A stretch of DNA of 36,362 bases from Myxococcales bacterium (GTDB lineage: Bacteria; Myxococcota; Myxococcia; Myxococcales; Myxococcaceae): the NCBI GenBank assembly GCA_030693825.1, contig JAUXZV010000023.1, forward strand, positions 102,984 through 139,345, in the 5' to 3' direction. The position numbers and the translations under genes were made by a program. Of this stretch, positions 1 to 36,362 are shown one piece after another; the stretch's first letter is position 1, and each line of letters starts with the position of its first letter. A model generated the notes under the pieces. The model had not been told where the DNA came from. It saw nothing but the letters and a program-made list of their open reading frames with translations, and ran no database searches.

Positions 1-536
1 TCCAGTGCGCGGCGAGCGGTGACGGCTACGGCCCGTCGGACCACATCAGCTTCTATTCGGCAGGCCTGCCGGTGCTGCACTTCTTCACCGGCGCGCACAA
101 CGACTACCACAAGCCCTCCGACACCCCGGACAAGCTCAACGCCATCGGTATCGCGAAGGTGGCTGAGGTGGTGAGCGCCATCGTCAACACCTCGAAGGAC
201 GTGACGCTGACGTACGCGAAGTTCCCCGCGCCGGTTCGTGGTGACTCACGCAGCTTCAACGCGTCACTCGGCACCGTGCCCAACTATGGCGGTGGCCTGC
301 CGGGCGTGAAGGGCGTGCTCCTCGACGACGTGCGGGCCGGTGGTGGCGCCGAGAAGGCCGGCATGCGGCGGGGCGACGTCATCGTGAAGCTCGGCAAGTA
401 CGACGTCGGCTCGGTCGAGGACCTGATGTTCGTGCTCATGCAGGCGAAGCCGGGCGAGACCGTGACGGGCGTCGTGGTGCGCGAGGGCCAACGCGTGGAG
501 CTCGAGGTGACGTTCCAGGAGGGCAAGCGCCGGTGA
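1..536 (+). CDS. Partial CDS, missing its 5' end: C-terminal part of an M28-family metallopeptidase with a C-terminal PDZ domain
   Basis: The frame stays open to the window start. The motif ISFYSAGLPVLHFFTGAHNDYHKPSDTPDKL matches the M28 peptidase metal-binding region. It is followed by a PDZ-like segment (GLPGVKGVLLDDV...GDVIVKLGKYDV). The stop is at 534-536. Confidence 0.6.
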   Translation, partial: QCAASGDGYGPSDHISFYSAGLPVLHFFTGAHNDYHKPSDTPDKLNAIGIAKVAEVVSAIVNTSKDVTLTYAKFPAPVRGDSRSFNASLGTVPNYGGGLPGVKGVLLDDVRAGGGAEKAGMRRGDVIVKLGKYDVGSVEDLMFVLMQAKPGETVTGVVVREGQRVELEVTFQEGKRR

Positions 537-12740: not shown

Positions 12741-12932
12741 AGTGCGGGCGACGCCAGCTGAACGGTGGAAGCCCTCGCGCGACGAATCGAGACCGACCAC
12801 TGAGGGTGCGCCGCTCACGTCGATCGCGCCGACTTCTGAGGCTCGGGGCGCGCAGTGGTCTCGCCCAGAAGCTCACCTGTCGGCGCGGTGAGATTTTTTC
12901 ATCGGCAAGCCCCGCACGTTGGAGCTATCTAG

Positions 12933-12967
12933 CGATTGTGCATTTGCGAATCGTTCTCAATATTGTC
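12933..12967. promoter_or_regulatory. AT-rich palindromic elements (CGATT-N11-AATCG; CAATATTG) at the start of the imelysin operon; candidate metalloregulator (Fur-like) operator
   Basis: Lies within a local low-GC island (12890-12990) in a ~70% GC genome. Contains the perfect 8-bp palindrome CAATATTG at 12958-12965 and a CGATT/AATCG inverted pair. Overlaps the predicted 5' end of the imelysin gene, where the codons show atypically low GC3. Confidence 0.3.
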
Positions 12968-14137: not shown

Positions 14138-14168
14138 GCGCAGTGCACCCTTGTCACACAGAGGCACC

Positions 14169-15299
14169 ATGCATCGAGTTCTTCTGAGCCTGATCGTTCT
14201 TCCCGTCGCGGCCTGTGGCCCGATGGACATGCGTCTCGATGGCGGTGGTGGCGCAGGCGGCGGTTCGACCGGCTGCACCGTGACCCTCACCGGCGCCTAC
14301 CCCGACGCGGGCTTCGCGACGAACGCGGCCGCCGAGATCAGCCTCCTCGGCAAGCTCAACGCGCTCAACGCGCCGATGCGGGCCGCCGAGCTCGACGCGG
14401 GCTTCACGGTGACGCGCATGCAGCTCGACGAGCTCTTCAGCGCCGGCACGCCGTCGCTCTCGAGCCTCACCGCGGCGGGCTTCCAGCCAGTGGTCCAGGA
14501 GACCTTCACCGCCTTCCTCGCCTCCCAGGGCCGCGTGTGGACGCCGATGGACCCTCCGATGAGCGGCGGCATCTACGGCTCGGGCACCAGCCAGTGGATC
14601 TACAGTGAGCGCGGCGTCGACCTGCGGCAGGTCATCGACAAGGGGCTCTACGGCGCGCTGTTCTACGGCGAGGCGGTCAAGCGCATGCCGACGGCGACGA
14701 CGCCGGAGTCCATCGACCAGCTGCTCGCGCTCTACGGTGCCACGCCGAACTTCCCGCAGAACGACACCACGGCGCCCGGGCGCGACGAGCTGATGGCGAA
14801 GTACGCCAAGCGCCGCACGCCGCAGGGCATGACGGGGCAGTACACGACGATGCGAGATGCGTTCGTTCGCGCGCGGCTCGCGGCCGGTTCGGCCAGCTGC
14901 ACCGCCGAGCGCACGGCGGCGCTCGAGACCATCAAGAGCGAGTGGGAGGAGATGCTCGCGGCGACCGTCGTCTTCTACGTGAACTCGGCGGCGACGAAGC
15001 TGCAGGACCCGATGGCCGACGTGGCGAAGAAGTCTTCGGCGATGCACGACCTCGGGGAGGGCGCCTCGTTCTTCCTCGGGCTCAAGGCCGTGCCGCAGGC
15101 GAACCGGCGCATCACCGACGCGCAGATCGACCAGGTGCTCACGGCGATGAAGATCCCCTCGCTCGCGGGCTCGACGGCGTTCCAGTTGCTGACGACGGTG
15201 CCGCCTGACATCGACGCGCTGCTCGCGGCGAACATGCAGCTGCAGACCGTCTACGGCTTCACCGCCGATGAGATGGTGCGCTTCCGGACCAACTTCTGA
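14169..15299 (+). CDS. Lipoprotein of unknown function. Its position in imelysin/HTTM/TonB clusters suggests it could be the DUF4856-like lipoprotein of such loci (tentative).
   Basis: MHRVLLSLIVLPVAACG lipobox. Weak AGAGG RBS. Its stop overlaps the next start (TGATG), indicating translational coupling. Family assignment is from gene context only. Confidence 0.55.
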   Translation: MHRVLLSLIVLPVAACGPMDMRLDGGGGAGGGSTGCTVTLTGAYPDAGFATNAAAEISLLGKLNALNAPMRAAELDAGFTVTRMQLDELFSAGTPSLSSLTAAGFQPVVQETFTAFLASQGRVWTPMDPPMSGGIYGSGTSQWIYSERGVDLRQVIDKGLYGALFYGEAVKRMPTATTPESIDQLLALYGATPNFPQNDTTAPGRDELMAKYAKRRTPQGMTGQYTTMRDAFVRARLAAGSASCTAERTAALETIKSEWEEMLAATVVFYVNSAATKLQDPMADVAKKSSAMHDLGEGASFFLGLKAVPQANRRITDAQIDQVLTAMKIPSLAGSTAFQLLTTVPPDIDALLAANMQLQTVYGFTADEMVRFRTNF

Positions 15300-16609
15300 T
15301 GCGCGCGCGGTGGGAGCAGCTCGCGGGCTGGGCCGGCGCCTCGGAAGACGGCGCGTCGGTGCGGGTGTACCGCGCCCTCATCGGGCTGCTCCTCGCCGGA
15401 GCCCTCGTTCGCCTCCACCTGACGGGGTGGACGGGGCCGCTGTTCCTCGAGCCGACGTTCCGGTTCGAGTACGAGGCGTTCGCCTTCGTTCCCGTCATCC
15501 CGAAGGCGCTGGTGCCGTGGGCGCTCGCGGTGGGCGCGGTCGGCGCCGTGGTGCTGGGCTTCGGGGCCGGCTTGGCGCGCCGGCTGGGCGGTGTCGTCTT
15601 CCTCGCCTGCTTCGGGTGGCTCAAGCTGTATGACGTCACCAACTACCTGAACCACGACTACCTCGCGTTCCTGCTTGGGGCGCTGCTGACGGTGCTCCCG
15701 CTCGACGGCCCCTCGCTGCCGCGCTGGGCGCTGTGGCTCCTTCGTTTTCAGGTGGGCGTCGTCTACGTGCACGCCGGCCTCGCCAAGGTGAACACCGACT
15801 GGCTGCTGCACGGCCAGCCGCTCGAGACGTGGTTCGCGGCGAACCGGGGCCTGCCCGTGCTGGGCCCGTTGCTCGCGCTGCCGTTCGCGCCGCTCCTGGG
15901 GAGCTGGGCCGCTTGTCTCTACGACCTGACGATTCCGTTCTGGTTGTCGGCGCGGCGAACCCGGCCTTTCGCGCTGGTGGCGGTGCTCGTGTTCCACGGC
16001 GCGACGCACGCGCTCTTCGACATCGGCATCTTTCCCTTCCTGATGACGCTGAACGCAACGCTGTTCCTCGACCCGTCGTGGCCGCGGCGGCTCGGGTGGC
16101 GCCCGGTGGCCGTGGCGCAGGGCGGTCGGCCGCTCGGTGCAGCCCTGGCAGTTGGGCTCGCGATGTACGTCGCCTTCCAGGCGCTCTTCCCGCTGCGCTC
16201 GCACCTGCTCGGCGACGACGTGCTGTGGGACGAACAGGGCATGCGCTGGTCGTGGAAGGTGATGCTGCGCGAGAAGAACGGCGCGGTGAGCTACCGGGTG
16301 CGCGCGAAGGGCGAGACGCGCGAGTGGCAGATTGACCCTCGCGACGTGCTGACGGCGCGGCAGGCGAACGAGATGAGCGGCCAGCCGGACCTCATCGTGC
16401 AGCTTGGGCGGCACCTCGGGCGAGACCTCGCGCAGAAGCTCGGCCGGCCCGTCGAGGTGTTCGTCGACGCGAGGGTCTCGTTGAATCGGCGCGCGCCGAG
16501 GCTGCTCTTCAAGCCTGAGGTCGACCTGTTGACGCTCGAGAACCTTCGGCAGGCGCTGAACGAGTCTCCACGGCGGGCGTCTTCGCCAGAATCGGTCGCG
16601 GTGAGGTGA
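15299..16609 (+). CDS. HTTM-domain integral membrane protein (vitamin K-dependent gamma-carboxylase-like)
   Basis: VYRALIGLLLAGALVRLHL...LFLEPTFRFEYEAF...YVHAGLAKVNTDWLLHGQPLETWF matches the HTTM signature. At least 8 TM helices. Start is coupled to the upstream stop. Confidence 0.75.
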   Translation: MRARWEQLAGWAGASEDGASVRVYRALIGLLLAGALVRLHLTGWTGPLFLEPTFRFEYEAFAFVPVIPKALVPWALAVGAVGAVVLGFGAGLARRLGGVVFLACFGWLKLYDVTNYLNHDYLAFLLGALLTVLPLDGPSLPRWALWLLRFQVGVVYVHAGLAKVNTDWLLHGQPLETWFAANRGLPVLGPLLALPFAPLLGSWAACLYDLTIPFWLSARRTRPFALVAVLVFHGATHALFDIGIFPFLMTLNATLFLDPSWPRRLGWRPVAVAQGGRPLGAALAVGLAMYVAFQALFPLRSHLLGDDVLWDEQGMRWSWKVMLREKNGAVSYRVRAKGETREWQIDPRDVLTARQANEMSGQPDLIVQLGRHLGRDLAQKLGRPVEVFVDARVSLNRRAPRLLFKPEVDLLTLENLRQALNESPRRASSPESVAVR

Positions 16610-16610
16610 C

Positions 16611-19076
16611 GTGATGTGGTGGCCGGTCGTCGTGTCGTTGTTCGTCGCCCAGACGCCGACCGGTTCGGCTGACGGAGGCTCGTTCGACGAACCTCGCGGC
16701 CACTGGGAGTCCCGCACGCGAGTGAGCGAGCTGCCGCCGCTCGCCGACGGTGGCAGCTTCGAAGCGGATGAAGCTGCGGCACCGCGTGGCGTGACGGCGG
16801 CTGATCCCGACGGTGGCGGCTTCGACGCGGGAGAGGAAGCGACCCCGCGTGGCACGACGGTGGCTGACCCCGACGGTGGCGGCTTCGACGCGGGAGAGCA
16901 AGCCCGTGCCGCCACGGTGGCTGGCCCCGATGGTGGCGTGTGGGACGCCGAGGACGAAGCGGCGCCGGCCTCCGACGCCGGAGTGGGCTTCACCACGAAG
17001 GTGGTTGGGCAGCGGGGACCTGACGTTCGTCGCATCACCGGCAGCGCGGTGACGCTCGGCGAGGAAGACCTCGAGCGCCGCGAGCTCAACGACATTCATC
17101 GGGTCCTGGGTGAGGTGCCCGGCGTGTACTTTCGTGAAGAAGATGGGCTGGGCCTGCGGCCGAACATCGGCCTGCGCGGCGCGAACCCCGATCGGAGCGC
17201 GAAGGTCACGCTGATGGAAGACGGGGTGCTGCTCACGCCGGCGCCGTACTCCGCTCCCGCCGCGTACTACTTTCCGCTCGTCACCCGAATGGTGGGGCTC
17301 GAGGTCTACAAAGGGCCAGCGGCGATTCGGTTCGGCCCCCAGACGATTGGCGGCGCCATCAACCTGCGCACGCGCGAGGTGCCGAAGGAGCACCTCTTCA
17401 AGCTCGACGTCGCTGGAGGCAGCCGCTTTCAGGCGCGGGTGCACGGCGTCGCCGCGGTGGGCACGGAGCGCTGGGGCCTGCTCGCCGAGGGCGTGTTCCT
17501 GCGCGACGAGGGGTTCAAGGTGCTCGACCGCGGCGGCAACACCGGCTTCGAGCGCGGCGAGGTGATGCTGAAGGGGCGCGTGAGCCCCAACGACGCATGG
17601 CAACAGCAGCTCGAGGTGAAGGCGACGCTCTCGCTCGAGGACAGCCGGGAGACGTACCTGGGCGTGTCGACCGAGGACTTCGAGGCGACGCCGAACCGCC
17701 GGTACGCGACGACGGCGCTCGACCGGATGGAGTGGAACCGGCTCTCGGTGACGGCCCGCTGGAGCGCCCAACCGGCGTCGTGGTTGTCGTTGTCTGCGGC
17801 GGCGTACCGGCACTCGATGTTCCGCGCGTGGAATCGGCTCGATCGCTTCCGGCGGGGCCCGGGCCTGTACGAGCTGTTGGTGCAGCCGGTGCGCGGAGGA
17901 CTCGACGGTCAGTACCTCGGCGTGCTGCGCGGGGCGGTCGATTCGAGCAGCCTCGACGAGTCGCTCATCGTGCTGAACAACGCGCGCACCCTGGTGAGCC
18001 AGGGGGTGCAGGCCGAGGCGGTGGCGAAGCTGACGACGGGGCCAGTGCAGCACGAGCTCGAAGCGGGCCTGCGGTTCCACCACGACGAGGTTCGGCGCAA
18101 CCACACCGCCACCGGCTACGCAGTCGTCGGCGGCGCGCTCGAGCCTGACGCCTTGCCGGTGGCGCAGGACGCGCTCAACCGGGGGCTCTCGCGGGCCGGG
18201 GCGCTGCACCTGCATGACACCATGACGTGGGGGCGCCTGCTGGTGTCGCCGGGCATGCGCGTCGAGCTCATCGACACGGTGTTCAAGGACGACCTCTCGG
18301 GAAAGACGTCGCGGTCGCTCCAGGCGGTGCCGCTCTTCGGCGCGGGCGCGGTGGTGGCGTTGCCGCTGGGCCTCAACGTCTTTGGAGGTGTGCACCAGGG
18401 CTTCAGCCCCGTGACGCCCGGCCAGTCGGCGGACGTGCGGCCCGAGCGGGCGCTGCATGGCGAGCTCGGCGTTCGGTCGCCGTCGCGGCGTCGTCGGCTC
18501 GAGCTGGTGGGGTTCTGGAGCGAGTACTCGAACATCACCGGCGAGTGCACCGGCAGCACGGGCTGCGTCGACGACGCGCTCAACCGGCAGTTCAACGGGG
18601 GCGCGGCGCGCATCGTCGGGCTCGAGGCCCTGGCGTCGGTCGTGATTCCGCTCCCGGCCGACATCGAGCTGGTGCCTCAGGTGACGTACACCCTGACGAG
18701 CGCGCGGTTCTTGTCCGACTTCACCTCGTCGAACCCCATCTGGGGCGTGGTGCGGGCGGGCGACCTCATTCCGTACGTGCCGACGCACCAGGGCTCGGCG
18801 CGGCTCATCTTCAACCGCGACGCGCTGTCGCTGTCGGTGGGCGCGGAGTTCTCTGGTGGCGTCGTCGAGGAGGCGGGCGACGGCCTCTCGCAGCCGACGG
18901 TGCCGGGGCGGGTGTTGCTCGACGCGACGGCGAGCTACCGGGTGGGGCTGTTTCAGTTCTACGCGCAGGGCATGAACCTGACGAACCAGCAGGTGGTGGT
19001 GGCGCGGCGCCCATTCGGTGCGAGGCCGCTGGCTCCGCTCGCGGTGCAAGCCGGCGTGCGGGTGCAGTGGCCGTAG
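16611..19076 (+). CDS. TonB-dependent outer-membrane receptor with an N-terminal acidic repeat extension
   Basis: Plug domain (DIHRVLGEVPGVYF...NIGLRGANPDRSAKVTLMEDGVLL...YKGPAAIRFGPQTIGGAINLRTRE) followed by a long barrel ending ...RVQWP. The GTG at 16611 or ATG at 16614 follows GAGG. It starts 1 nt after the HTTM stop. Confidence 0.8.
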   Translation: MMWWPVVVSLFVAQTPTGSADGGSFDEPRGHWESRTRVSELPPLADGGSFEADEAAAPRGVTAADPDGGGFDAGEEATPRGTTVADPDGGGFDAGEQARAATVAGPDGGVWDAEDEAAPASDAGVGFTTKVVGQRGPDVRRITGSAVTLGEEDLERRELNDIHRVLGEVPGVYFREEDGLGLRPNIGLRGANPDRSAKVTLMEDGVLLTPAPYSAPAAYYFPLVTRMVGLEVYKGPAAIRFGPQTIGGAINLRTREVPKEHLFKLDVAGGSRFQARVHGVAAVGTERWGLLAEGVFLRDEGFKVLDRGGNTGFERGEVMLKGRVSPNDAWQQQLEVKATLSLEDSRETYLGVSTEDFEATPNRRYATTALDRMEWNRLSVTARWSAQPASWLSLSAAAYRHSMFRAWNRLDRFRRGPGLYELLVQPVRGGLDGQYLGVLRGAVDSSSLDESLIVLNNARTLVSQGVQAEAVAKLTTGPVQHELEAGLRFHHDEVRRNHTATGYAVVGGALEPDALPVAQDALNRGLSRAGALHLHDTMTWGRLLVSPGMRVELIDTVFKDDLSGKTSRSLQAVPLFGAGAVVALPLGLNVFGGVHQGFSPVTPGQSADVRPERALHGELGVRSPSRRRRLELVGFWSEYSNITGECTGSTGCVDDALNRQFNGGAARIVGLEALASVVIPLPADIELVPQVTYTLTSARFLSDFTSSNPIWGVVRAGDLIPYVPTHQGSARLIFNRDALSLSVGAEFSGGVVEEAGDGLSQPTVPGRVLLDATASYRVGLFQFYAQGMNLTNQQVVVARRPFGARPLAPLAVQAGVRVQWP
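16746..16980 (+). repeat. In-frame tandem repeat (~60-63 bp period, ~4 copies) encoding DGGGFDAGEE-A-PRGTTVADP units in the TonB receptor N-terminus
   Basis: Successive units beginning gacggtggc(a/g)gcttcga... are directly visible. Copies 2 and 3 are nearly identical over their first 30 nt. Confidence 0.6.
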
Positions 19077-27373: not shown

Positions 27374-29042
27374 GCGGGCCGTACAGCCTTCAAGGCCCGG
27401 ACCTCCGTCGTTCTTCCAGCACCTCGTCCTCCTCTGGCAGCTGCGCCTCACCATCGGCTTCAACCGCAGCGATGGCAGACACCGCTGGTTCTCGGTCGTC
27501 GCGTTCGTGTTCTCGGCCTCGCCGTCGGTCGTGCTCGCGCTGATGTTCTACCGCTTCATGCAGCACCCGGTAGTGGCGGGCTCCGACGCGTGGGGCGACT
27601 TCCTGGTTCGCCTCTTGTTGTTCGTCACGAGCGCGACGTGGGTGACGTGGCCGGTGTTGTCGGCTGGCGTCGACGACCACTCGGAGCTGTCGCGCTACTC
27701 GGCGTTCCCCATCTCGAGCTTCCGCCTCATGTTGGCGTCGACGCTGGCGAGCCTGTTCGAGCCACGCACCTTCGTCTTCTACGGCCCGCTCGTCGGCGCG
27801 ACGGTGGGGTACCTGAAGAACCGGCCGCCCGAGTCGTGGGCGCTGGTGGTGGTCGGCTTCGCCTCGTACGTGCTGCTGAACGCGGCGCTCTCACGCGTCG
27901 GCCTGCACGTGATGTTGAACCTGCTGCGGCAGGCGCGCTCGGCCGAGCTGATTGGCGGTGGCTTCGTGGTGAGCCTCGTGGTGGCGGCGTTCATTCCCGC
28001 CGTCGACACCGAGTGGCTGCTCCACCTCAACGAGGTCGGCGCCGCAGCGGTGCCCGACACCATCATCGAGAACGCGGCGCTGGCGCTGGGGCGGTTTCCC
28101 ACCGGGTGGTTCGGCCATCTGTTGCGCGCGAACTGGGCGGGGCGGCTCGAGCTCGCGGCGGCCGACGCGCTCGCCACGCTGGAGCTCAGCCTCGTCGCGC
28201 TCGTGGTGGCGTGGGGGCTCTTGCTGCAGTTCCACCGCTTCTCGGGGCGCGCGGGCTCCATCTCGAACCAGGCGCGGGCGTCGAACCCGTTCGCGCACAC
28301 GAAGAGCACGTTCTCGACGTTGGTCGTGCGTGAGGCCATCGACCTCTGGAACAACCCGCGCGCGCGGCTGCTGGCCTCGGTGCCGTTCGTGCTCGCGATT
28401 CTGCTCAAGCTGCTGTCTGGCCGCGCGCTGTTCGTCTTCCTTCTCGGGGCCTCAGCCGACGCCTGGGTGATGGGCGGCCTCACGGTGTACGGGGCCATCG
28501 TCTTGTCCTCGACGTTCTCGCAGAACGCGTTCGCCTACGACGGCCACGGCTTCACGGTGTTCCTCTCCTCGCCGGTGCCGGTGGGAGAGGTGCTGCGCGC
28601 GAAGAACGTGGTGCACGGCGCGGTCGGCGGCGTGATGGGCGTGCTCGTCGTCGTCTTCTACTTGGCGTACTTCCGGGCCGGGAGCGCGCTCGACGTTACG
28701 TGCGCGCTGCTCTCGGTCATCGCGCTGGTGCCGGTCTTGCTCACCGCGGGCAACTTCCTGTCGCTGTATTTCCCCGTGAAGTTCCACGCCAACCTGAAGC
28801 GTCGCGACACGCTGCCGTTCGCGGCGTCGATGCTGGGGCTCGCGGCGGCGTCGATTGGCACCGCGCCGTTCGCGACCGCGATGAAGCTCGTCGGGAAGCA
28901 GGGGCCGAACGTGATGACGGCGTTGCTCATCGTCTTCTCGGCCGTGCTCGCCTGGGCCGTGTACCGGCTCACGTTGCCCGTGGTGCTGAGGCTGCTCGAT
29001 CAGCGGCGGGAGCGCATTCTTCGCGCCGTCACCCGGGAGTAG
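27363..29042 (+). CDS. Putative ABC-2-type transporter permease (polytopic membrane protein, 559 aa)
   Basis: GTG start overlapping the ATPase stop by 11 nt. About 10-12 hydrophobic helices. No specific family recognised. Confidence 0.6.
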   Translation: MQAERAVQPSRPGPPSFFQHLVLLWQLRLTIGFNRSDGRHRWFSVVAFVFSASPSVVLALMFYRFMQHPVVAGSDAWGDFLVRLLLFVTSATWVTWPVLSAGVDDHSELSRYSAFPISSFRLMLASTLASLFEPRTFVFYGPLVGATVGYLKNRPPESWALVVVGFASYVLLNAALSRVGLHVMLNLLRQARSAELIGGGFVVSLVVAAFIPAVDTEWLLHLNEVGAAAVPDTIIENAALALGRFPTGWFGHLLRANWAGRLELAAADALATLELSLVALVVAWGLLLQFHRFSGRAGSISNQARASNPFAHTKSTFSTLVVREAIDLWNNPRARLLASVPFVLAILLKLLSGRALFVFLLGASADAWVMGGLTVYGAIVLSSTFSQNAFAYDGHGFTVFLSSPVPVGEVLRAKNVVHGAVGGVMGVLVVVFYLAYFRAGSALDVTCALLSVIALVPVLLTAGNFLSLYFPVKFHANLKRRDTLPFAASMLGLAAASIGTAPFATAMKLVGKQGPNVMTALLIVFSAVLAWAVYRLTLPVVLRLLDQRRERILRAVTRE

Positions 29043-29203
29043 CGCCGAACGGTGGGGCGGCTCCGCCCTGACGGATGAATGAGGATCAGGTGACGCCCTT
29101 TCGGGGGGGCCCTCGCCTTTTCGTCTGTCGCCGTGTGTCACACTCCAGCCCACCACTCGTTCCGCTCCCTGGGCAGTGAACAACGCAGTCGTGTGAGGCA
29201 TCG

Positions 29204-29770
29204 ATGGAGCCCATGGTCGACGAAGAGTTGGTCTGTCTCAGGGAGCGGCGGCTGGTGAAGGTCAGCCCCGACGGAGAACGTTCCATCAGCTGCACGGAGC
29301 GCTGCCCGCTCGAGGCATGTGCCCATGGTGTGGCCGCCGGGCGCTGTGGGCTTCGCTTGTGCGGTGAGCTGGTCAGCCCGCTGGTGACCGTGCTGGATGC
29401 AGAGCTCTCGGTCGCCGAGGCGCTCTCCGTGCTCGACGCCGCCCACCTCTCGTCTGCTCCCGTCGTCGACGACAACCTGGTGCTCGTGGGTCTGGTCTCG
29501 ACCTCCGAGCTCCACGCCGCTGAAGCCGGACTCGACGTGGAGGTCGAGGACGCGATGACGACGTCGGTGGTGGCCGTGTCGGACCGCGCCACCGTCGCAG
29601 AGATTGCCCAGGTGATGGACGAGCACGACCTCGACCGCGTCCCCGTCGTCACCAGCGAAGGTCAGCTGCGCGGCATGGTGACGGCCATGGACCTGGTGCG
29701 GTGGTTCCGGCGGCACGCGCTCCCCGTCGAGGTCGACGCGCCGGAGCAGGCCGTGGGCGCGCATCGCTGA
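29204..29770 (+). CDS. CBS-pair domain protein with an N-terminal Cys-rich (possible zinc-ribbon) segment
   Basis: Two CBS-like segments (LVTVLDAELSVAEALSVLD...APVVDDNLVLVGLVSTSEL and MTTSVVAVSDRATVAEIAQVMDEHDLDRVPVVTSEGQLRGMVTAMDL) are preceded by 6 Cys within 45 aa. GAGG RBS. Confidence 0.7.
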   Translation: MEPMVDEELVCLRERRLVKVSPDGERSISCTERCPLEACAHGVAAGRCGLRLCGELVSPLVTVLDAELSVAEALSVLDAAHLSSAPVVDDNLVLVGLVSTSELHAAEAGLDVEVEDAMTTSVVAVSDRATVAEIAQVMDEHDLDRVPVVTSEGQLRGMVTAMDLVRWFRRHALPVEVDAPEQAVGAHR

Positions 29771-29778
29771 ACGTCGAC

Positions 29779-30243
29779 TCAGTCGCAGGTGACAACGGTG
29801 CACGCGCCCCACAAGCCAATGCGGCTCGTCTTCGCCTGCGACTCGTACGTCTCGAACTCGTCGCGCCGCGCGCCGCCCGATGGAGACACGTACAGCGTGC
29901 ACGCGTAGCCCTGCTCGACGAGCGTGCGGTTCAGGTCGACGCCGTTGACCTTCACGTAGGCCAACGTTCGCCCGAACCGGTCGGTGCAGCCGGCCTCGTC
30001 GTAGCTGAGCTCCACCGTCTTGCCCGTCACGGTGTCCGAGGTGAACTGCGCGGCTTGCTGGCCGAAGCAGTCGGTCTTGCCGTTGGTCGACTCGGGCGTG
30101 TCGACGAGGAGCAGGCGCACCCGCTTGCCGTCAGACAGCTCGAGCGTATCGCCATCGATGGCGCGGCTGACGACGGCGGTCGAGGGCCCGCAGAGGCTGG
30201 GTGGCGTGGGCATTCCACAGGCCGCCACCATGGGCATCATCAC
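29779..30243 (-). CDS. Thermonuclease (staphylococcal nuclease / SNase fold), probably secreted or lipoprotein
   Basis: IDGDTLEL (Ca ligand Asp), RVRLLLVDTPES (Arg35, Asp40, Thr41, Glu43 equivalents), DRFGRTLAYV (Arg87 equivalent) and IGLWG align with SNase catalytic residues. The start is unclear: GTG 30243 gives a short MMMPMVAAC lipobox, and there is no canonical start upstream in frame. Confidence 0.8.
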   Translation of the reverse strand: MMMPMVAACGMPTPPSLCGPSTAVVSRAIDGDTLELSDGKRVRLLLVDTPESTNGKTDCFGQQAAQFTSDTVTGKTVELSYDEAGCTDRFGRTLAYVKVNGVDLNRTLVEQGYACTLYVSPSGGARRDEFETYESQAKTSRIGLWGACTVVTCD

Positions 30244-30272
30244 CAGCGCTGCGCTCCAGGGCTTCGAGCGCG

Positions 30273-32588
30273 TCAGGGCGCGCCGCCGTCACAGAGGGGG
30301 TTCAGCTCGGTCGGGCTGCCGTAGTCGCCGGGCCCGGCGTCGGTGGCGAAACGGTTCGGCGCGATGCACAGGTTCGCCGGCACGTCGTTGATGGCGGGCG
30401 TGATGAGCATCGGGTCGATCAGCAGCTCACCGGGCACCTGCCATGACTTGCCGCTCGTCGACCGGAAGAAGGCGATCTCGTCGATGCCGGCGTCACCGCG
30501 GAAGAGCCGCAGCAGCTCGTTGCCCGAGCTGCTGATGCCGATGGTGAAGGTGGCGATGGGGGGCGGTAGCCCGCCGTTGAGGAACGCGTTCGCGCTGCGC
30601 GCGAGAATCGCGTACGTCGTCGCCGGCACGCGCAGGCAGTTCGACGAGGCGATGGTGTTGCGCGTGCCTGCACCGTTGGCGACCGAGAGGCCATTCAGGT
30701 CGACGTCGGTCGTGGCGTACACCTCGAACCAGGTTCCGACCGTGGTGCTGACCGACGGGCTTGGCATCACCTCGGTGATGACGAGGTCGCCCGGCTCTGC
30801 GGCGACGATGGGCCGCGGGGTGCCGTTGTCGAGGCAGGTGCCCGTCATGGCTTCCGGAGCGCAGACCGGGTTCGCCGCGCCAGGGGTGCCAGAGCTGCCA
30901 GGCGTGTACTCGCTGCTGGTCGGCGTGTCGCACCAGTTGGCCTCGACCGCAGCGAGCGCAGTCGTGGGCGTCGCAGGCCCACCGAGCATGCGGCTTCGCC
31001 CGGAGCGCGCCGTGCGCACCCACGTGTATTCACCGACGACCTTCGTGTCGCAGCGAACGCCCACGGTGCCCGACGAGTTGTTCAACGCGCCCAGGTCTGC
31101 GCCGTAGGCGTAGCTGATCCACGCGGGGTTCGGCCCGGTGCGCACGTCGCCGACCGCGACCGCCTGGCCCGGCGGCACGATGACGGAGCTGCGCACGACG
31201 TGGGACCTGGGGGTCGTCGCGCCCTGGCGGTAGGTGAGCGTGAGGCCCGCGAGGTCGATGGGCGCGGCCGTCGTGTTGAAGAGCTCGAACCACTCGAGGC
31301 CGGTGTCGGTGCTGGGCGGGTCGACCATCACCTCGGTGACGACGAGGTCGCCCCCGTCGATGGCGTTGCAGTCGAAGGTCGGCAGGCCGCCGTCGGGCAC
31401 CACCACGACGCCAGAGTCCGCCGCGCAGGCTCCGTTGGCCGCGGCGGGCGTTCCGAAGTCGCCCGCGCTCCCCATCCACGCTGAGCTGGCTTTGCAGAAC
31501 GAGTCAGGGGTGTCGTTGAGGCTGGGCAGAATCTCGTCGGGGTTGGCGAGCAGCTCGGGTCGCACCTGCCATGAGACGCCGGTCTGCGAGGCGAAGAAGG
31601 TGGCGTCGTCGATGCCGGCATCACCACGCACCAGCCGCAGCCGCTCATTGGCCGACGAGAGGCTGACCGAGAACGTCGCCACGGCCTTCGGCAGGCCGCC
31701 GTTGACGAAGGCGTCGTTCGAGCGCGCGATGATGTTGTACGACTGCGCCGCCACCGTGAGGCACTCAGGCGAGGTGAGCGTGGCGCGGCTGGTGCTCGTC
31801 GCGATGGCGAGGCCGTTGAGGTCGACGTCGGTGGTGGCGTAGAGCTCGATCCACTCGCCGAGGGTGTCGGTGACGGCCCTCGGGCTCGCCATGACCTCGG
31901 TGATGAGCAGGTCTCCGGCCTCGGCCGCGACGATGGGGCGGGGCATGCCGTTCTGCAGGCAGGTGCCGACCATCGCCTCGGGAGCGCACTGCGGGTTGGG
32001 GCCGCCGGGCGTGCCGTAGCCGCGCGGCGTGTACTCGGTCGAGGTGGGCGTGTCGCACCAGTTGGCCTCGTTCGAGACGCGCGAGGCATCGGGGTCGACG
32101 CCACCGCCGAGCATGCGGGAGCGGCCCGAGCGCGCGGCGCGCGAGTAGCTGTACTCGTTGATGGCCGTCATGCCGCAGCGAATGGCGACGGTGCCTGAGG
32201 TCTGGCTGAGCGCGCCGAGATCGTCTCCGTAGCTGTAGCCAATCCACGAGGGGTTGGGGCCCGAGCGCACGTCACCGAGCGCGAGGTAGCCGCGGGCCGG
32301 CACCTGCACCGAGGCACGAACGGTGTGCGACTTCGCCGTCGAGGTGCCTTGCCGGTAGGTGATGGTGTAGCCGCGCAGGTCGATCGGCGTGCCGAGGGTG
32401 TTGAAGATCTCGATCCACTCGGCGCCGGTGTCGGTGCCCTCGGGGTCGAGCATCAGCTCGGTGATGACGAGGTCTCCAGCCACGCGGCCTTTGCAGGCGT
32501 CGGTGGGCATCTCGACGGGCGGGGTACACGACACGGCCGCGACGGCCGCCACCAGGAACATCACTCGAATTGAAGGCACGTTAGTCAT
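30273..32588 (-). CDS. Lipoprotein composed of four lamin-tail domains (LTD) arranged as a tandem A-B-A-B duplication
   Basis: Four LTD signatures (GDLVITELMLDPEGTDTGAEWIEIFN...IDLRGY; GDLLITEVMASP...GEWIELYATTDVDLNGL; GDLVVTEVMVDPPSTDTGLEWFELFN...IDLAGL; GDLVITEVMPSP...GTWFEVYATTDVDLNGL). Start ATG 32588 (MTNVPSIRVMFLVAAVAAVSC) overlaps the upstream stop within ATGACTAA. Confidence 0.75.
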   Translation of the reverse strand: MTNVPSIRVMFLVAAVAAVSCTPPVEMPTDACKGRVAGDLVITELMLDPEGTDTGAEWIEIFNTLGTPIDLRGYTITYRQGTSTAKSHTVRASVQVPARGYLALGDVRSGPNPSWIGYSYGDDLGALSQTSGTVAIRCGMTAINEYSYSRAARSGRSRMLGGGVDPDASRVSNEANWCDTPTSTEYTPRGYGTPGGPNPQCAPEAMVGTCLQNGMPRPIVAAEAGDLLITEVMASPRAVTDTLGEWIELYATTDVDLNGLAIATSTSRATLTSPECLTVAAQSYNIIARSNDAFVNGGLPKAVATFSVSLSSANERLRLVRGDAGIDDATFFASQTGVSWQVRPELLANPDEILPSLNDTPDSFCKASSAWMGSAGDFGTPAAANGACAADSGVVVVPDGGLPTFDCNAIDGGDLVVTEVMVDPPSTDTGLEWFELFNTTAAPIDLAGLTLTYRQGATTPRSHVVRSSVIVPPGQAVAVGDVRTGPNPAWISYAYGADLGALNNSSGTVGVRCDTKVVGEYTWVRTARSGRSRMLGGPATPTTALAAVEANWCDTPTSSEYTPGSSGTPGAANPVCAPEAMTGTCLDNGTPRPIVAAEPGDLVITEVMPSPSVSTTVGTWFEVYATTDVDLNGLSVANGAGTRNTIASSNCLRVPATTYAILARSANAFLNGGLPPPIATFTIGISSSGNELLRLFRGDAGIDEIAFFRSTSGKSWQVPGELLIDPMLITPAINDVPANLCIAPNRFATDAGPGDYGSPTELNPLCDGGAP
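30300..32480 (-). repeat. Internal ~1.08-kb tandem duplication (two LTD-pair modules) within the LTD lipoprotein gene
   Basis: Protein halves (residues ~50-385 and ~415-770) are collinear and highly similar, including the RSGRSRMLGG and NWCDTPTS(T/S)EYTP segments. Nucleotide identity not computed. Confidence 0.6.
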
Positions 32589-33711
32589 CCTCTTCACTGC
32601 GGTCGGCCCGTTTCTGATCATCAGTCAGCAGCTTCTCGAGCGAGGTCGACGGCGCGAGCACCTGCCCGGGGAGTGAGACGACCACCTGCAGCCGCTCCCA
32701 GCCCTTCTCGTTCTTGTACTTCTGCACGGTGCCGCGCACCTGCACGTATTCACTCTTCTTGAACTGCACGCCGGTGGACAACAAGACGTCGCGGTCGAAG
32801 AAGACGACGTCGAAGTCGTTGGTGCGGGTGCGGGCGAGCTTCACCACCGAGGGCCCGGTGCCTTCGCTGTATTTCAGGTCGCTGACCGAGCCGAGAATCG
32901 TCACCTCCTGGCCGACCTTGCTCTCGAGCTTCAGCATCGCGTCCCAGCGGGTGAGCGCGATGTAGTGCTCCGGGTCTTCGACGGCGGCCTTCTCGAAGCG
33001 GGTGATGACGGCCGCGCGCTCGGCCCACCACTTCAGGCGCTCCTCGTAGTCGGGGTAGGCCATGGCGCCCTGCTTCCAGATGCCGCGCTGGCCTTCACGC
33101 GCCTCGCGCTCGGCGTCGACGAACTCTTTGTGGAAGCGGCGGCTGCGGCCGTACTTCACGAAGTAGGGCGAGAAGCCGGCCCGCACACACTCGACGTTGT
33201 AGTTCACCCACTGGCCGTTCTTCTTCGCGAACACGTAGGCGAGGTAGCGGTTGTAGAAGTCGCGGATCTCGCCGGGGTGGTCGCGCTCCATGCGCACCTC
33301 GCGAACGTCTTCGAAGAAGGCCTGCGCGTAGTGCTTGGCGTCTTCGCCCAGTGGCGTGGCGTACTTCGCCGGCCGCGACGACGTTCCCTGCATCTGCTTC
33401 TTGTATTGCTCCCAGCCCGCCGCGAACGCCGCGCGCTCGGAGTCCTTCTTGAACGTCTCTTCGGTGTCGAGGCCCAGCAGACGCAGCGACGCTGGCAGGC
33501 CCTTGACCTTGATGGTGTCGCCGTCGAGCACCGACGAGGCGCCCTCGATGGGGAACTCGCCGAGCTCGAGGCTGACGGTCTCGAGGCGCTTGAGCAGCGA
33601 GCGGGTCTCGTCCTTCGTGAAGCGCTTGGACTGCTCCGTGGTGACGCCAGCGCACGAGAGCGCCAGGAGGAGCGCGGTGACGGCGAGAAGGCGAAGGGGG
33701 AGCGAGATCAT
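32581..33711 (-). CDS. SNase-fold nuclease lipoprotein with a C-terminal ~200-aa extension (possible OB-fold / nucleic-acid binding)
   Basis: Lipobox LLLALSC. VLDGDTIKVKG, LRLLGLDTEE, FYNRYLAYVF and GIW conserve the SNase catalytic and Ca-binding positions. It starts 6 nt after the upstream OMP stop. Confidence 0.75.
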   Translation of the reverse strand: MISLPLRLLAVTALLLALSCAGVTTEQSKRFTKDETRSLLKRLETVSLELGEFPIEGASSVLDGDTIKVKGLPASLRLLGLDTEETFKKDSERAAFAAGWEQYKKQMQGTSSRPAKYATPLGEDAKHYAQAFFEDVREVRMERDHPGEIRDFYNRYLAYVFAKKNGQWVNYNVECVRAGFSPYFVKYGRSRRFHKEFVDAEREAREGQRGIWKQGAMAYPDYEERLKWWAERAAVITRFEKAAVEDPEHYIALTRWDAMLKLESKVGQEVTILGSVSDLKYSEGTGPSVVKLARTRTNDFDVVFFDRDVLLSTGVQFKKSEYVQVRGTVQKYKNEKGWERLQVVVSLPGQVLAPSTSLEKLLTDDQKRADRSEEDD

Positions 33712-33717
33712 GGTGGG

Positions 33718-35925
33718 TCAGAAGCTGGTGCGGAGGTCGAGGAGGAAACGATGCTCTGGAGAGGGCTGCCGGCGCAAGGTCGAGGCCCGTTGGTCGAGCC
33801 ACACGAACAGGTCGTAGCGCGCCGCGACGCGCGTGCCCTTGAACGGAATCCACGCGGCCTCGAAGAACGTCCACAGCGAGTCTTCGTAGGTGGTGGGGCT
33901 GTCGATGCCCTCGGCGCGCAGGCGTGAGCGCAGCCGCAGCGAGAGCCAGTCGACCGGCTGACTCATCGCCTCGACCCAGACCTGCAGGTCGTTGCGAAAG
34001 TTCTCGCGGTACGCGCTCGAGAGGTCGTCGCGCCACGAGAACGAGGCCTGCTCGGTGAAGCCCAGGCGCTTGCCGAAGGGGCGCACGTCGATGCGCTGCA
34101 CGACGCGGTACGAGTCGCAGGTGAAGAAGGTGACCTCGCCGTCGAAGTCGTCCGGGGTGTTGAAGAACTCGGGCATGCCCGAGACCACCTGGGTCTGGCT
34201 GCAGACCCCGCGTTGGCTGACGGCGAGGTTTCTGTCGCTCAGGCGGAACCAGATGCTGGGCTTCAAGCCCCTGAAGCCCGTGAAGTCGACGCGCGTGAGG
34301 AGGATGAGGTTGGTGGTGCCTGCGCGGCCTCCCCGGCCGGCGAAGGGCAGCGTCCAGAAGTCGGCGGTGGCGCGAAACTGCCAGTCGCGACTGAACTTGC
34401 CGAAGTAGCGCACCCGCGCGCCGAGCTCGTTGCGCGCCCGCTGGCCGGCGTCTTCGTCGGGCCCTGAGAACGGCCGTGCGTAGGGGTTGAGGAACCGGTT
34501 GTCGTAATAGCGGAAGACGACCTCGAGCTCGTGGCCCTTGGGCGCCCAGGTGGTGCGCTGCACGGCGCCGAAGCCGCCGCCCTGGTTGTTGATGGCCTTG
34601 TCGAAGCTGCGCGTCACCTCGAGGTGCAGGTTGACGGGGCCGAGCACGGCCTGCGCGTCGACGCCGATGGCTCCGTAGGCGCCCCCGTTGGGGTAGCGCG
34701 AGGTGTCCTGGAAGTCGGGCTGCACCGCGCTGCCTGGAGGCACGGTGTTGAAGAAGGGCACCGCGCCGTACCCCGTGATGCCGAAGCGAAGGGCGTAGTT
34801 GGGCTTGAAGTCGACGTGGCCGCCGGCCGAGAGCTCGTCGAAGAAGCCAGGCAGGGTGGCGTAGCGAAGCCGCCATGGGGTGCTCGGGTCCTGCGGGTTC
34901 AGGATGGAGATGCGCGGCGAGCTGCAGTCCGAGTCGGTCGACGAAGGGTCGAGGCAGGTGGCGCGATCGTACAGATCGTACTGGTACACGCCGCGCGACT
35001 GGTACGAGAGGAAACCGTAGAGCGAGAGCGAGCGCTGGTCGCCGAGGTCGAGGTTCTCGATGCTGCCGGCGACGCCGCGGAAGGCGTCGCGCGTCGCGTA
35101 GTCGGCGGTGACGTAGCGGCTGCCGTCCTGGCACTCGGGTGGCGGGGTCGCGCCGGTGTCGACGCTGGTGCGGCAGAGGGTCGAGAGGTCCTGGTTTCGC
35201 CTGAAGTCGTCGGTGAGGTAGAGGCCACGCGGGGTCACCCGGCGCGTGTTGTCGAGGGTGAGGCGCTCGCCGAAGCCGATGGTGAAGGTGCCGACGATGA
35301 CGCGGCGGTTGCCGTTGAGCCACTGCAGGAACAGGCGCGGCGCGTCGAGGCGGTACCTGTAGCCTTCGGTCGCGAGGCCCTGGAGCGTCTGGTCGAAGCG
35401 GGGCTGCACCGGGTCGAGCCGGCTGGTGACGAGCATGGCGCCGGCGGTCAGGTCGAGCGGGCCCCTGAGCCGGGCCGCGAAGAGCGCCGGCGGCGCGAGC
35501 GAATCGGTCAGCGTGTATTGGGTGAGCAGGCGAAGCTTGCCGCCGATCGGCAGCTTCTCTTTCACCGGCTCGAGCGAGATGTAGACGGCGATGCCGATGA
35601 GCTGCTCGGCGGTCATCACCCCGGCGCCGACGAGCTCGGCCGGGTCTTCGATGCGGCCCTTCTGCGTGCGGTAGAGGATGAGCTTGTCGACGTCGTCGTA
35701 GGTGAGGCCGGGCAAGTCATAGAGCCTCTCGCGCGGCGCCGAGTTCAGGTCGACGCCTTCACGAAGCAGCTCGAGCAGGGTGTCGCCGGTGTCCTGCGAG
35801 ATGTCGCCTCGCTGCACCATCGCGAAGATGTCTTCTTCGTCGTCGGCGTCGACGACGGCCTCGTAGATGGCCCCGAACGCGGAGGCCGACCACAGGCAGG
35901 CTGCAAAGGCGATGACCGGGCGCAT
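33718..35925 (-). CDS. Predicted outer-membrane beta-barrel protein with an N-terminal ComEA-like helix-hairpin-helix DNA-binding domain
   Basis: Signal peptide MRPVIAFAACLWSASAFGA. The HhH segment DLNSAPRERLYDLPGLTYDDVDKLILYRTQKGRIEDPAELVGAGVMTAEQL matches the ComEA-type pattern (DLNTA...LPGIG...I..YR...G.F...EDL..V.GIG). The remaining ~600 aa are rich in alternating aromatic/Gly beta-strand patterns and end in a terminal Phe (...LDLRTSF). ATG at 35925 with a GGGTGG SD-like sequence upstream. Confidence 0.65.
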   Translation of the reverse strand: MRPVIAFAACLWSASAFGAIYEAVVDADDEEDIFAMVQRGDISQDTGDTLLELLREGVDLNSAPRERLYDLPGLTYDDVDKLILYRTQKGRIEDPAELVGAGVMTAEQLIGIAVYISLEPVKEKLPIGGKLRLLTQYTLTDSLAPPALFAARLRGPLDLTAGAMLVTSRLDPVQPRFDQTLQGLATEGYRYRLDAPRLFLQWLNGNRRVIVGTFTIGFGERLTLDNTRRVTPRGLYLTDDFRRNQDLSTLCRTSVDTGATPPPECQDGSRYVTADYATRDAFRGVAGSIENLDLGDQRSLSLYGFLSYQSRGVYQYDLYDRATCLDPSSTDSDCSSPRISILNPQDPSTPWRLRYATLPGFFDELSAGGHVDFKPNYALRFGITGYGAVPFFNTVPPGSAVQPDFQDTSRYPNGGAYGAIGVDAQAVLGPVNLHLEVTRSFDKAINNQGGGFGAVQRTTWAPKGHELEVVFRYYDNRFLNPYARPFSGPDEDAGQRARNELGARVRYFGKFSRDWQFRATADFWTLPFAGRGGRAGTTNLILLTRVDFTGFRGLKPSIWFRLSDRNLAVSQRGVCSQTQVVSGMPEFFNTPDDFDGEVTFFTCDSYRVVQRIDVRPFGKRLGFTEQASFSWRDDLSSAYRENFRNDLQVWVEAMSQPVDWLSLRLRSRLRAEGIDSPTTYEDSLWTFFEAAWIPFKGTRVAARYDLFVWLDQRASTLRRQPSPEHRFLLDLRTSF

Positions 35926-36011
35926 CGAGCGGCGCCACCCTACCCGCAAACAGCAGGCAGGATCGTGACCCTTTCACTCGTCAGGAAACGGCAAGGTGAC
36001 GCCACTGAAAC

Positions 36012-36362
36012 CTAGTTGTTGGGCGCGCCGGCGTTGATCCAGTCGCGAATGAGGTCGATCTGCACTTGAGGCAGACAGGAATTGCCCGAGCAGCCTCGGG
36101 GCATACGTCCGCCACACGTCTGCGTCCCTGCGACTTTCTGGAAGAGCAAGCTCGCCGTGGCGTCGCTCGCGACGAGGCGCGGGCCACCGCATGAGCTCGT
36201 GCCGCGCACGTAGGTGTTGGCCGCGGCGACGGTGTCGGTCGAATGGCAGGTGCTACATCGTGCCGCGAGAATCGGTGCGACCTGCGACATGAAGCTGACT
36301 TGTGCGGTTCCCCCTCCGGCAGCGCCACCTGCCGCCGAGCCACCTGCTGCCGAGCCACCTGC
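36012..36362 (-). CDS. Partial CDS, 5' end outside the window: protein with a Gly/Ala/Ser-rich linker and a C-terminal PSCyt1-like (planctomycete cytochrome c-type) domain
   Basis: VAPILAARCSTCHS...LIRDWINAGA matches the PSCyt1 domain pattern, including CxxCH. The frame stays open upstream to the window end through AGGSAAGGSAAGG (15-nt direct DNA repeats at 36320-36362). Confidence 0.5.
   Translation of the reverse strand, partial: AGGSAAGGSAAGGAAGGGTAQVSFMSQVAPILAARCSTCHSTDTVAAANTYVRGTSSCGGPRLVASDATASLLFQKVAGTQTCGGRMPRGCSGNSCLPQVQIDLIRDWINAGAPNN

Follow-up and report, generated by a model that had tools for sequence, protein, structure and literature searches.

To our knowledge, DNA and its fragments pass the outer membrane (OM) of Gram-negative bacteria by only a few routes. 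These are the secretin, pilus and ComEA used in natural transformation and the small nucleoside channels, to which the TonB-dependent Ddb transporters of Bacteroidota were added in 2025. Here, we describe a gene of a Myxococcales bacterium which encodes a large OM beta-barrel with a ComEA-type helix-hairpin-helix (HhH) domain at its mature N-terminus. The gene lies in a stretch of 36,362 nucleotides (GenBank assembly GCA_030693825.1, contig JAUXZV010000023.1, positions 102,984 to 139,345 of the forward strand), which was analysed as a whole and is hereafter called the window, and it is followed by three genes for lipoproteins, two of which are nucleases. We tentatively favour, with slightly less than even confidence, the reading that this barrel is the OM component of a four-gene Myxococcota module acting on extracellular DNA. 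This module would most likely be a nutrient-scavenging "DNA-utilisation locus", a myxobacterial counterpart of the ddb locus of Bacteroidales built from unrelated parts.

The ddbABCDEF locus encodes lipoprotein nucleases, the OM transporter DdbC and the binding lipoprotein DdbD, and is needed for the depletion of exogenous DNA (PMC12478041). The myxobacterial module shows the same polymer-utilisation layout, with an OM barrel, lipoprotein nucleases of the signal peptidase II (SPII) type, a non-enzymatic, likely substrate-binding lipoprotein and no inner-membrane transporter. However, the two systems share no homologous component. DdbC belongs to the TonB-dependent transporters (TBDTs) and has a plug, and DdbD is of the DUF5689 type, whereas the module described here combines, in a Myxococcota host, a 24-strand barrel and an acidic HhH domain with a partner made of lamin-tail domain (LTD) repeats and with nucleases of the SNase or PLD families. 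Neither the barrel nor its partners gave a match to the TBDT models or to DUF5689. Moreover, the function of ddb was shown by experiment, whereas the myxobacterial module is known here from sequences. The same domain vocabulary, namely LTD, OB fold and nuclease, is also found in Xds of Vibrio and ExeM of Shewanella, which are surface-associated and use DNA as a nutrient (PMC6746945, PMC6085458), the products of Xds crossing the OM via OmpK (PMC6746945). In Xds and ExeM, these domains are united in a single polypeptide with an EEP nuclease and the small OmpK barrel is unlinked, whereas here they are distributed among three lipoproteins genetically tied to a dedicated 24-strand barrel.

Linkage of the barrel to nuclease and LTD genes

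Relatives of the barrel protein are encoded at 189 loci (one genome per species), and gene neighbourhoods were counted at 80 genome loci. At these loci, the barrel gene is followed by genes for an SNase protein with an OB fold (SNase-OB), an LTD protein and a small SNase protein. Among the loci with enough flanking sequence, the LTD gene was present in every case and the SNase-OB gene was absent from just four, and the small SNase gene came after the LTD gene in 60 loci. Polyangia and Nannocystaceae display a cyclically permuted order (SNase-OB, LTD, SNase, barrel), and the genes flanking the module are unrelated between lineages.

The linkage extends to a distant subfamily B, which shares approximately 30% identity with the window protein (E=1e-70 to 1e-93) and of which a metagenome scan yielded 11 short loci. 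Ten subfamily B loci carry a PLD-family protein of approximately 180 aa with a single HKD motif directly upstream of the barrel, and an LTD-repeat protein downstream; at one further locus of this subfamily, the LTD and SNase genes are divergent and stand next to the barrel. The PLD protein is similar to Nuc (1byr, E=2e-15), to Zucchini (E=3e-17) and to NucT of Helicobacter pylori (E=7.5e-7), and the full-length copies that were read possess a signal peptide or a lipobox. An assignment of the PLD neighbours as cardiolipin synthases was also considered. It holds for a 473-aa gene with two HKD motifs beside one subfamily B member (P0499) and was rejected for the single-HKD proteins, given their matches to nucleases.

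The linkage is therefore maintained through gene-order permutation, strand inversion, nuclease replacement and divergence to approximately 30% identity. As the barrel and the LTD protein remain constant while unrelated nuclease superfamilies are exchanged, these neighbourhoods provide strong evidence that the barrel would work together with secreted nucleases on nucleic acid. The same observation leaves a close to negligible probability for a general porin or structural OM protein whose adjacency to nucleases is meaningless, an explanation that was already disfavoured. P0499, which adjoins the cardiolipin-synthase-like gene and has neither nuclease nor LTD neighbours, would suit such a protein, as would the merely generic structural matches of the barrel fold, but the linkage survives all these rearrangements.

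In the window, the SNase-OB gene begins 6 nt past the stop codon of the barrel gene. Both genes share one reading frame (33709-33720), with no more than the stop codon and another two codons between them, which suggests translational coupling. The initial annotation had placed the barrel gene immediately upstream of two nucleases; two SNase genes are indeed found downstream, with the LTD gene lying between them. The SNase-OB protein matches Pfam SNase (E=3.9e-11) and, weakly, an OB fold. According to the alignment, it keeps the catalytic residues D21, R35, D40, T41, E43 and R87 of the Staphylococcus aureus nuclease. Its AlphaFold2 (AF2) model (pLDDT 75) comprises an SNase fold (TMt 0.75), a long helix and a five-strand OB fold matching that of AsnRS. 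In the small SNase protein, the motifs DGDT...RLLLVDTPE...GRTLAY can be read from the sequence. The LTD protein is not itself a nuclease and matches Pfam LTD over four stretches (E=6e-41); the true start of its gene is probably a few codons downstream of the listed one. A lipobox was found in the SNase-OB protein at no fewer than 60 of 71 loci (with the lipobox Cys), in the LTD protein at no fewer than 54 of 69 and in the small SNase protein at no fewer than 52 of 60. The conserved catalytic residues and the lipobox on each of the three partners suggest that the nucleases are active and lie outside the cytoplasm. The gene beyond the small SNase gene is convergent. No promoter-like site was detected in 29000-36362, and terminator-like sites occurred there at chance level.

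These same features could also be explained by export. The barrel would then be a translocon which carries the LTD protein and the lipoprotein nucleases onto the cell surface or into vesicles, in the manner of Slam (type XI) secretion or of other barrel platforms for lipoprotein exposure. Its acidic, DNA-like HhH domain would act as a periplasmic receptor or chaperone that binds the clefts by which the cargo contacts DNA, and it might hold the nucleases in an inactive state before export. We regard this as possible, although doubtful. The lipoboxes of all three partners agree with it, and so does a cargo that varies between SNase and PLD nucleases while the barrel remains constant, as is typical of dedicated secretion partners. 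The module is also without an inner-membrane transporter, none belonging to it having been found in the neighbourhoods examined. Nevertheless, the barrel is not homologous to Slam/DUF560, TpsB, BamA or other known translocons, and a 24-strand pore is far larger than the known lipoprotein translocons. Slam (type XI) systems resemble the module in that an OM barrel with an N-terminal periplasmic domain is encoded beside its lipoprotein cargo. Membership of this family, defined by a 14-strand DUF560 barrel with TPR, was rejected because of the absence of a Pfam match, the 24 strands and the helical HhH N-domain.

With regard to the LTD component, several additions were observed in Polyangia and Nannocystaceae. 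Modules of these groups contain an extra lipoprotein of approximately 240 aa before SNase-OB, with a single LTD by motif, and a second large LTD protein is frequent. Extra small LTD lipoproteins are located at L068 2391-3023, L074 412-1311, L077 507-1238 and L078 671-1417. These extra LTD lipoproteins indicate that the LTD component has expanded in both groups.

The 24-strand barrel and its family

The open reading frame (ORF) 33718..35949(-) has a coding-type GC3, and no other long frame in this region is coding-like. Alignment with homologues, which begin with MRxx, places the start at the ATG at 35925, in agreement with the initial annotation. An AF2 model of the full protein was built from a 39-sequence alignment and reached a pTM of 0.81 (Table 1). 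In this model, the signal peptide is a low-pLDDT helix, a short linker of low confidence joins the HhH domain to the barrel, and 24 long beta-strands were counted in residues 128-734. The strands are joined in alternation by turns of 2-6 residues and by loops of 8-63 residues. As this asymmetry is typical of OM proteins, the N-terminal domain is expected to be periplasmic, or to lie in a lumen entered from the periplasm. The protein displays the features of an OM barrel, namely a Sec signal, an even number of amphipathic strands, a closed barrel, the turn/loop asymmetry and a C-terminal aromatic residue. The signal peptide, beta-strands and C-terminal Phe that had been recognised from the sequence are thus all present, on a modelled barrel rather than a soluble fold, and the architecture of a ComEA-type HhH domain at the mature N-terminus of a large OM barrel was confirmed by HHH_3, by the ComEA profile and by the AF2 model.

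The fusion is widespread. A search of 5.8 billion proteins retrieved 211 full-length relatives with the window protein as query and 588 with a Nannocystaceae member, and in a profile search of 1.84 billion cluster representatives (clusters at 50% identity), 317 clusters passed a threshold of E<=1e-30 and 645 passed E<=1e-10. All named sources of relatives are Myxococcota. Cultured carriers are Nannocystis sp., Enhygromyxa salina, Pseudenhygromyxa and one Nannocystaceae isolate; no cultured Myxococcus or Archangium occurred among the best matches to the window protein. The HhH-barrel fusion is a real and old architecture, and its conservation in hundreds of lineages disposes of the objection that it might result from a frameshift artefact.

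The barrel itself gave no match in Pfam or NCBIfam at E<=0.1. The chaperone-usher proteins FimD and PapC are the nearest solved fold, with 6-10% identity and a likeness in barrel size. Membership of the ushers was rejected, as there is no usher Pfam match, no plug, no N- or C-terminal usher domain and no chaperone or pilin gene nearby. TBDTs, including those of the SusC type, are similar in having a large gated barrel, an N-terminal domain of approximately 100-150 aa before the first strand and surface lipoprotein partners. However, they possess 22 strands, a beta-rich plug and a TonB box, whereas the present protein has 24 strands and an all-helical acidic HhH domain. Membership of the TBDTs was rejected on the basis of the strand number, the helical N-domain and the lack of a match to Plug (PF07715) or TonB_dep_Rec (PF00593) at E<=0.1; a true TBDT encoded elsewhere in the window matches both models. 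The similarity to FadL, OmpP1 or porins that the initial annotation had envisaged was not found. FadL/OmpP1 proteins (14 strands, N-terminal hatch, Toluene_X) and porins were rejected, given that the barrel is of usher or TBDT size and matches neither family.

In the window protein, the lumen-facing strand residues are net positive (+31/-18), and ten sampled family members are similar (+25..35/-17..23). A barrel of transporter size, with 24 modelled strands and a net-positive lumen, would favour transport, the lumen charge being the weaker point. A barrel this large must be gated, a role that may fall to the acidic N-domain, to loops L3 and L4 or to a partner lipoprotein. One Cys pair, which probably forms a loop disulfide, is present in each of three long extracellular loops, namely 251/265 in L3 (219-281), 324/334 in L4 (315-356) and 575/603 in L9 (565-604). 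Of these six residues, the family keeps 251, 324, 334, 575 and 603. Mean-field direct coupling analysis (DCA) of 409 family sequences (Meff 256) showed no clear enrichment of adjacent-strand pairs; the top pairs were mostly gap or local artefacts and the analysis failed its own validation. In this failed analysis, couplings between the N-domain and the barrel were nearly absent, which carries no weight, and 251/265 was the top pair outside the signal-peptide region before the removal of gappy columns.

Such loops could also serve a surface nuclease platform without transport, in which the barrel would anchor the LTD protein and the nucleases for matrix DNA, prey DNA or vesicle loading, and the lumen would be closed by loops, the N-domain or a lipoprotein plug, as in LptD-LptE. 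The long, confidently modelled, disulfide-bearing loops L3 and L4 and the N-domain of approximately 100 aa could fill the lumen, and MtrB and LptD, which host partner proteins, are among the structural matches. Extracellular DNA is reportedly used in the myxobacterial matrix (PMC9073016). Nevertheless, anchoring of lipoproteins needs no barrel, and scaffolding alone hardly explains a conserved 24-strand barrel with a net-positive lumen, which makes this platform quite improbable.

The degenerate ComEA-type domain

Pfam HHH_3 (PF12836) matches residues 56-106 of the window protein with an E-value of 3.2e-5 and 24.4 bits, which is below the gathering score of 27. Within the family, it matches 37 of 39 members, the best of them at E=1.5e-12. 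The ComEA structures 8dss (E=1e-7) and 8dfk (E=1e-3) were retrieved with an N-domain profile, as were the HhH domain of EEPD1 (E=3e-8) and Tex. Judging from these profile comparisons, the homology of the N-domain to ComEA is secure at the family level. Residues 56-118 share the two-HhH layout and the invariant structural Arg of ComEA/ComE (HHH_3), and both domains reside on the periplasmic side, here by barrel topology. ComEA is soluble or membrane-anchored, whereas the HhH domain is fused to a barrel here.

DNA binding by ComEA of Vibrio cholerae needs the GIG hairpin (G60) and the K62/K63 pair; it is abolished by K63E alone or by K62/63A, while R71 is structural (PMC3879209). We mapped these positions by spacing from the Arg, R71 being equivalent to R86, and collected statistics over 330 family N-domains. 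R86 is invariant (330/330). In contrast to the GIG of ComEA, hairpin 1 reads L-P-(N/G)-L-(T/S), with N in 167 and G in 146 members at the third position, T in 231 and S in 67 at the last, and a second Gly in only five. Hairpin 2 has kept G102 in 252 members and G100 in 68. Two Gly-h-Gly hairpins are therefore not present, the second Gly of hairpin 1 being absent from 325 of the 330 members and hairpin 2 being partial. The basic pair after hairpin 1 is likewise absent at the mapped positions, which are mostly acidic in the family (Table 1). The N-domain has a net charge of -15 in the window protein; over the 330 members, this charge averages -13.8 and extends from -22 to -2.

The segment preceding the HhH domain is better conserved. 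Homologue leaders are hydrophobic and end in A-x-A ahead of (A)IYE, a mature N-terminus that is almost invariant within the family. The strand-like motif at this end is IYExxV in the subfamily of the window protein (subfamily A). Subfamily B, the N-domain of which follows the same plan, has YDVPILV instead. Helices were modelled at residues 30-39 and 44-56, and the conserved residues are Y21, E22, E30, D32, R39 and L50. The part comprising residues 20-55 is also kept in subfamily B and in members devoid of the HhH domain. A profile search found no matching HhH segment in P0405, P0428, P0436, P0437 and P0466; by eye, P0405 and P0436 retain the acidic N-terminal helices. As the HhH domain was lost in some members in which the acidic helices were kept, the acidic part, rather than the HhH domain, looks like the conserved core of the N-domain.

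Given the replacement of the hairpin Gly and of K62/K63, a net charge of about -14 and the loss of the domain in some members, DNA binding is unlikely and the HhH domain is probably not a DNA clamp. The initial annotation had described a barrel carrying its own DNA-binding module, to be refuted by a lack of Gly-h-Gly hairpins. This was not borne out, as hairpin 1 lacks the second Gly in nearly the whole family, hairpin 2 retains its glycines in part, and D77/D78 occupy the positions of the lysine pair in a strongly acidic domain. From the residue statistics, the N-domain appears to be a clear case of domain repurposing, in which a ComEA domain was retained over hundreds of lineages after the loss of its DNA-binding face. 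A strongly acidic domain without DNA-binding lysines would suit basic nucleic-acid-binding proteins, as the export explanation proposes, and the mature N-terminus of SNase-OB is basic (C-xTTxxKRFTRD).

The ComEA origin of the N-domain could also point to natural transformation. The barrel would then admit transforming DNA through the OM, the role suggested for the OM transporter of Riemerella, and the nucleases would act in the entry or processing of this DNA. The ddb locus is related to the transformation locus of Riemerella anatipestifer, which comprises an OM transporter and an adjacent nuclease (PMC12478041, PMC8459023), the PLD nuclease of subfamily B resembles H. pylori NucT, and a true ComEA-like gene is found upstream of the barrel at one locus (see below). 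However, each operon encodes two non-specific SNases whose active sites are intact, which points to degradation, comEC, comF and dprA are absent from all neighbourhoods examined, and the fused HhH domain lacks the DNA-binding residues. A role in transformation therefore has only a slight chance of being correct.

Table 1 Positions of the module genes and of the features of the barrel protein in the window, with the equivalents of ComEA residues
Feature	Position in window	Strand	Description
HhH-barrel gene	33718..35925	-	735 aa; stop codon 33718-33720; GC3 0.93; AF2 pLDDT 82.7
Signal peptide, residues 1-19	35869..35925	-	MRPVIAFAACLWSASAFGA, read from sequence, then IYE
Mature N-terminus, residues 20-55	35761..35868	-	IYE..V strand-like motif and acidic helical hairpin (DADDEEDIF...GDIS..T.DTLLELL)
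Degenerate acidic ComEA-type (HhH)2 domain, residues 56-118	35572..35760	-	hairpin 1 LPGLT(YDDVD), hairpin 2 VGAGV
24-strand OM beta-barrel, residues 128-735	33721..35544	-	ends ...LDLRTSF
T75 (ComEA G60)			T or S in 298/330, Gly in 5/330
D77 (ComEA K62)			Ala/Glu/Asp in 244/330, Ala in most members; Lys in 13/330
D78 (ComEA K63)			Asp/Glu in 255/330; Lys/Arg outside the six commonest residues
D80 (no ComEA counterpart)			Asp in 315/330
SNase-OB lipoprotein nuclease	32581..33711	-	376 aa; SNase domain with insertion, long helix, C-terminal OB fold
4xLTD lipoprotein	30273..32621	-	782 aa as listed; lipobox ...AAVSC; Pfam LTD
Small SNase lipoprotein	29779..30243	-	154 aa; last operon gene; Pfam SNase E=5.9e-23

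A proposed route for extracellular DNA

In the DNA-utilisation module that we favour, the OM-anchored lipoprotein nucleases and the LTD-repeat lipoprotein would be exposed at the surface, where they would bind DNA from the surroundings or from prey and cleave it. The resulting pieces would pass the OM via the 24-strand barrel with its net-positive lumen. Digestion would end in the periplasm and, as the module contains no inner-membrane component, general transporters would import the products. The N-domain, on the periplasmic side or in a lumen entered from there, may act as a gate or plug, or as a dock for basic partner proteins, rather than as a DNA ratchet, given that its DNA-binding lysines are lost and that it is strongly acidic. 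A DNA or oligonucleotide channel, as suggested in the initial annotation, stays the best explanation by gene context, while the HhH domain lends it no support.

Three kinds of neighbouring genes hint at uptake and are weaker points. At one subfamily B locus (L102 2270-6041), genes for an OmpR-type response regulator, PhoU_div and a PHO4 phosphate permease immediately precede the PLD nuclease, barrel and LTD genes and share their strand, a context that hints at a link to phosphate starvation. At another (L085 1793-2317), a true ComEA-like protein of 174 aa with two canonical HHH_3 domains (E=2e-41) is encoded, and the barrel gene follows after 72 nt in the same orientation. The third kind is represented by TonB-family genes in two independent lineages. 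The phosphate-uptake and ComEA-like neighbours suit import better than export.

The TonB-family genes were observed in two arrangements. A TonB_2-domain protein of approximately 380 aa, with a transmembrane (TM) helix and a Pro-rich spacer, is encoded upstream of the barrel in 30 Myxococcia loci, for example at L002 5561-6700, L012 6702-7832 and L041 7101-7862, directly before the barrel. TonB-family genes are also found near the module in four subfamily B loci; in this subfamily, ExbB, ExbD and TonB_C genes lie convergent downstream of the LTD gene (for example L101 10418-12418 and L090 5192-6344). These neighbours could reflect either TonB dependence of the barrel or plain synteny.

Several points weigh against a DNA-utilisation module. 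The HhH domain, which was the original hint of DNA uptake, has lost the DNA-binding residues of ComEA, as judged from the alignment. The direction of transport is fixed by no result here, and three lipoprotein partners suit export or display equally well. The barrel is without a Plug domain according to Pfam and shows no recognisable TonB box, the TonB-family neighbours may be plain synteny, those of subfamily B lying beside the housekeeping genes rho, rpmE and prfA, and the phosphate-gene and ComEA-like neighbours are single cases. Finally, the subfamily B member P0499 stands apart from nuclease and LTD genes.

A more far-reaching version of DNA uptake can be envisaged, which we consider unlikely. 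The barrel would be a new type of channel that conducts polymeric nucleic acid and is distinct from both secretins and TBDTs, in which the acidic HhH domain (about -14) serves as a DNA-mimic plug in an electropositive lumen. This plug would be displaced by incoming DNA, or pulled by a TonB-family protein acting on the N-terminal strand motif, so that surface capture would be coupled to pore opening.

The contig ends 437 bp upstream of the barrel gene, the upstream neighbours of which are known from relatives. Just upstream of the barrel, a small ORF (36012-36290, -) contains a CxxCH motif (CSTCH) and gives weak Pfam matches of cytochrome-c-like type. It is kept in close relatives only (L001-L004, L006-L011 and L013) and is probably not part of the module. 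A cluster at 12806-19076 (+) encodes an imelysin (Peptidase_M75), a DUF4856 protein, an HTTM/vitamin-K-carboxylase-like membrane protein and a TBDT with a long Gly/Asp-rich N-terminal extension, and looks like a separate uptake locus. Besides this imelysin-DUF4856-HTTM-TBDT cluster, the window contains housekeeping-type genes for PPDK, IleRS, PepN, a Ser/Thr kinase and an ABC ATPase.

The novelty of the present system resides in the barrel family and in the repurposed ComEA domain, while the kind of system, an OM DNA-utilisation locus, is already known. Myxococcota abound as predators and decomposers in soil, sludge and sediments, environments in which extracellular DNA constitutes a major store of phosphorus and nitrogen. 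The cultured Nannocystis and Enhygromyxa carriers make the system directly testable. If the favoured reading is true, this family would add an independent solution for the crossing of the OM by DNA, in Myxococcota.

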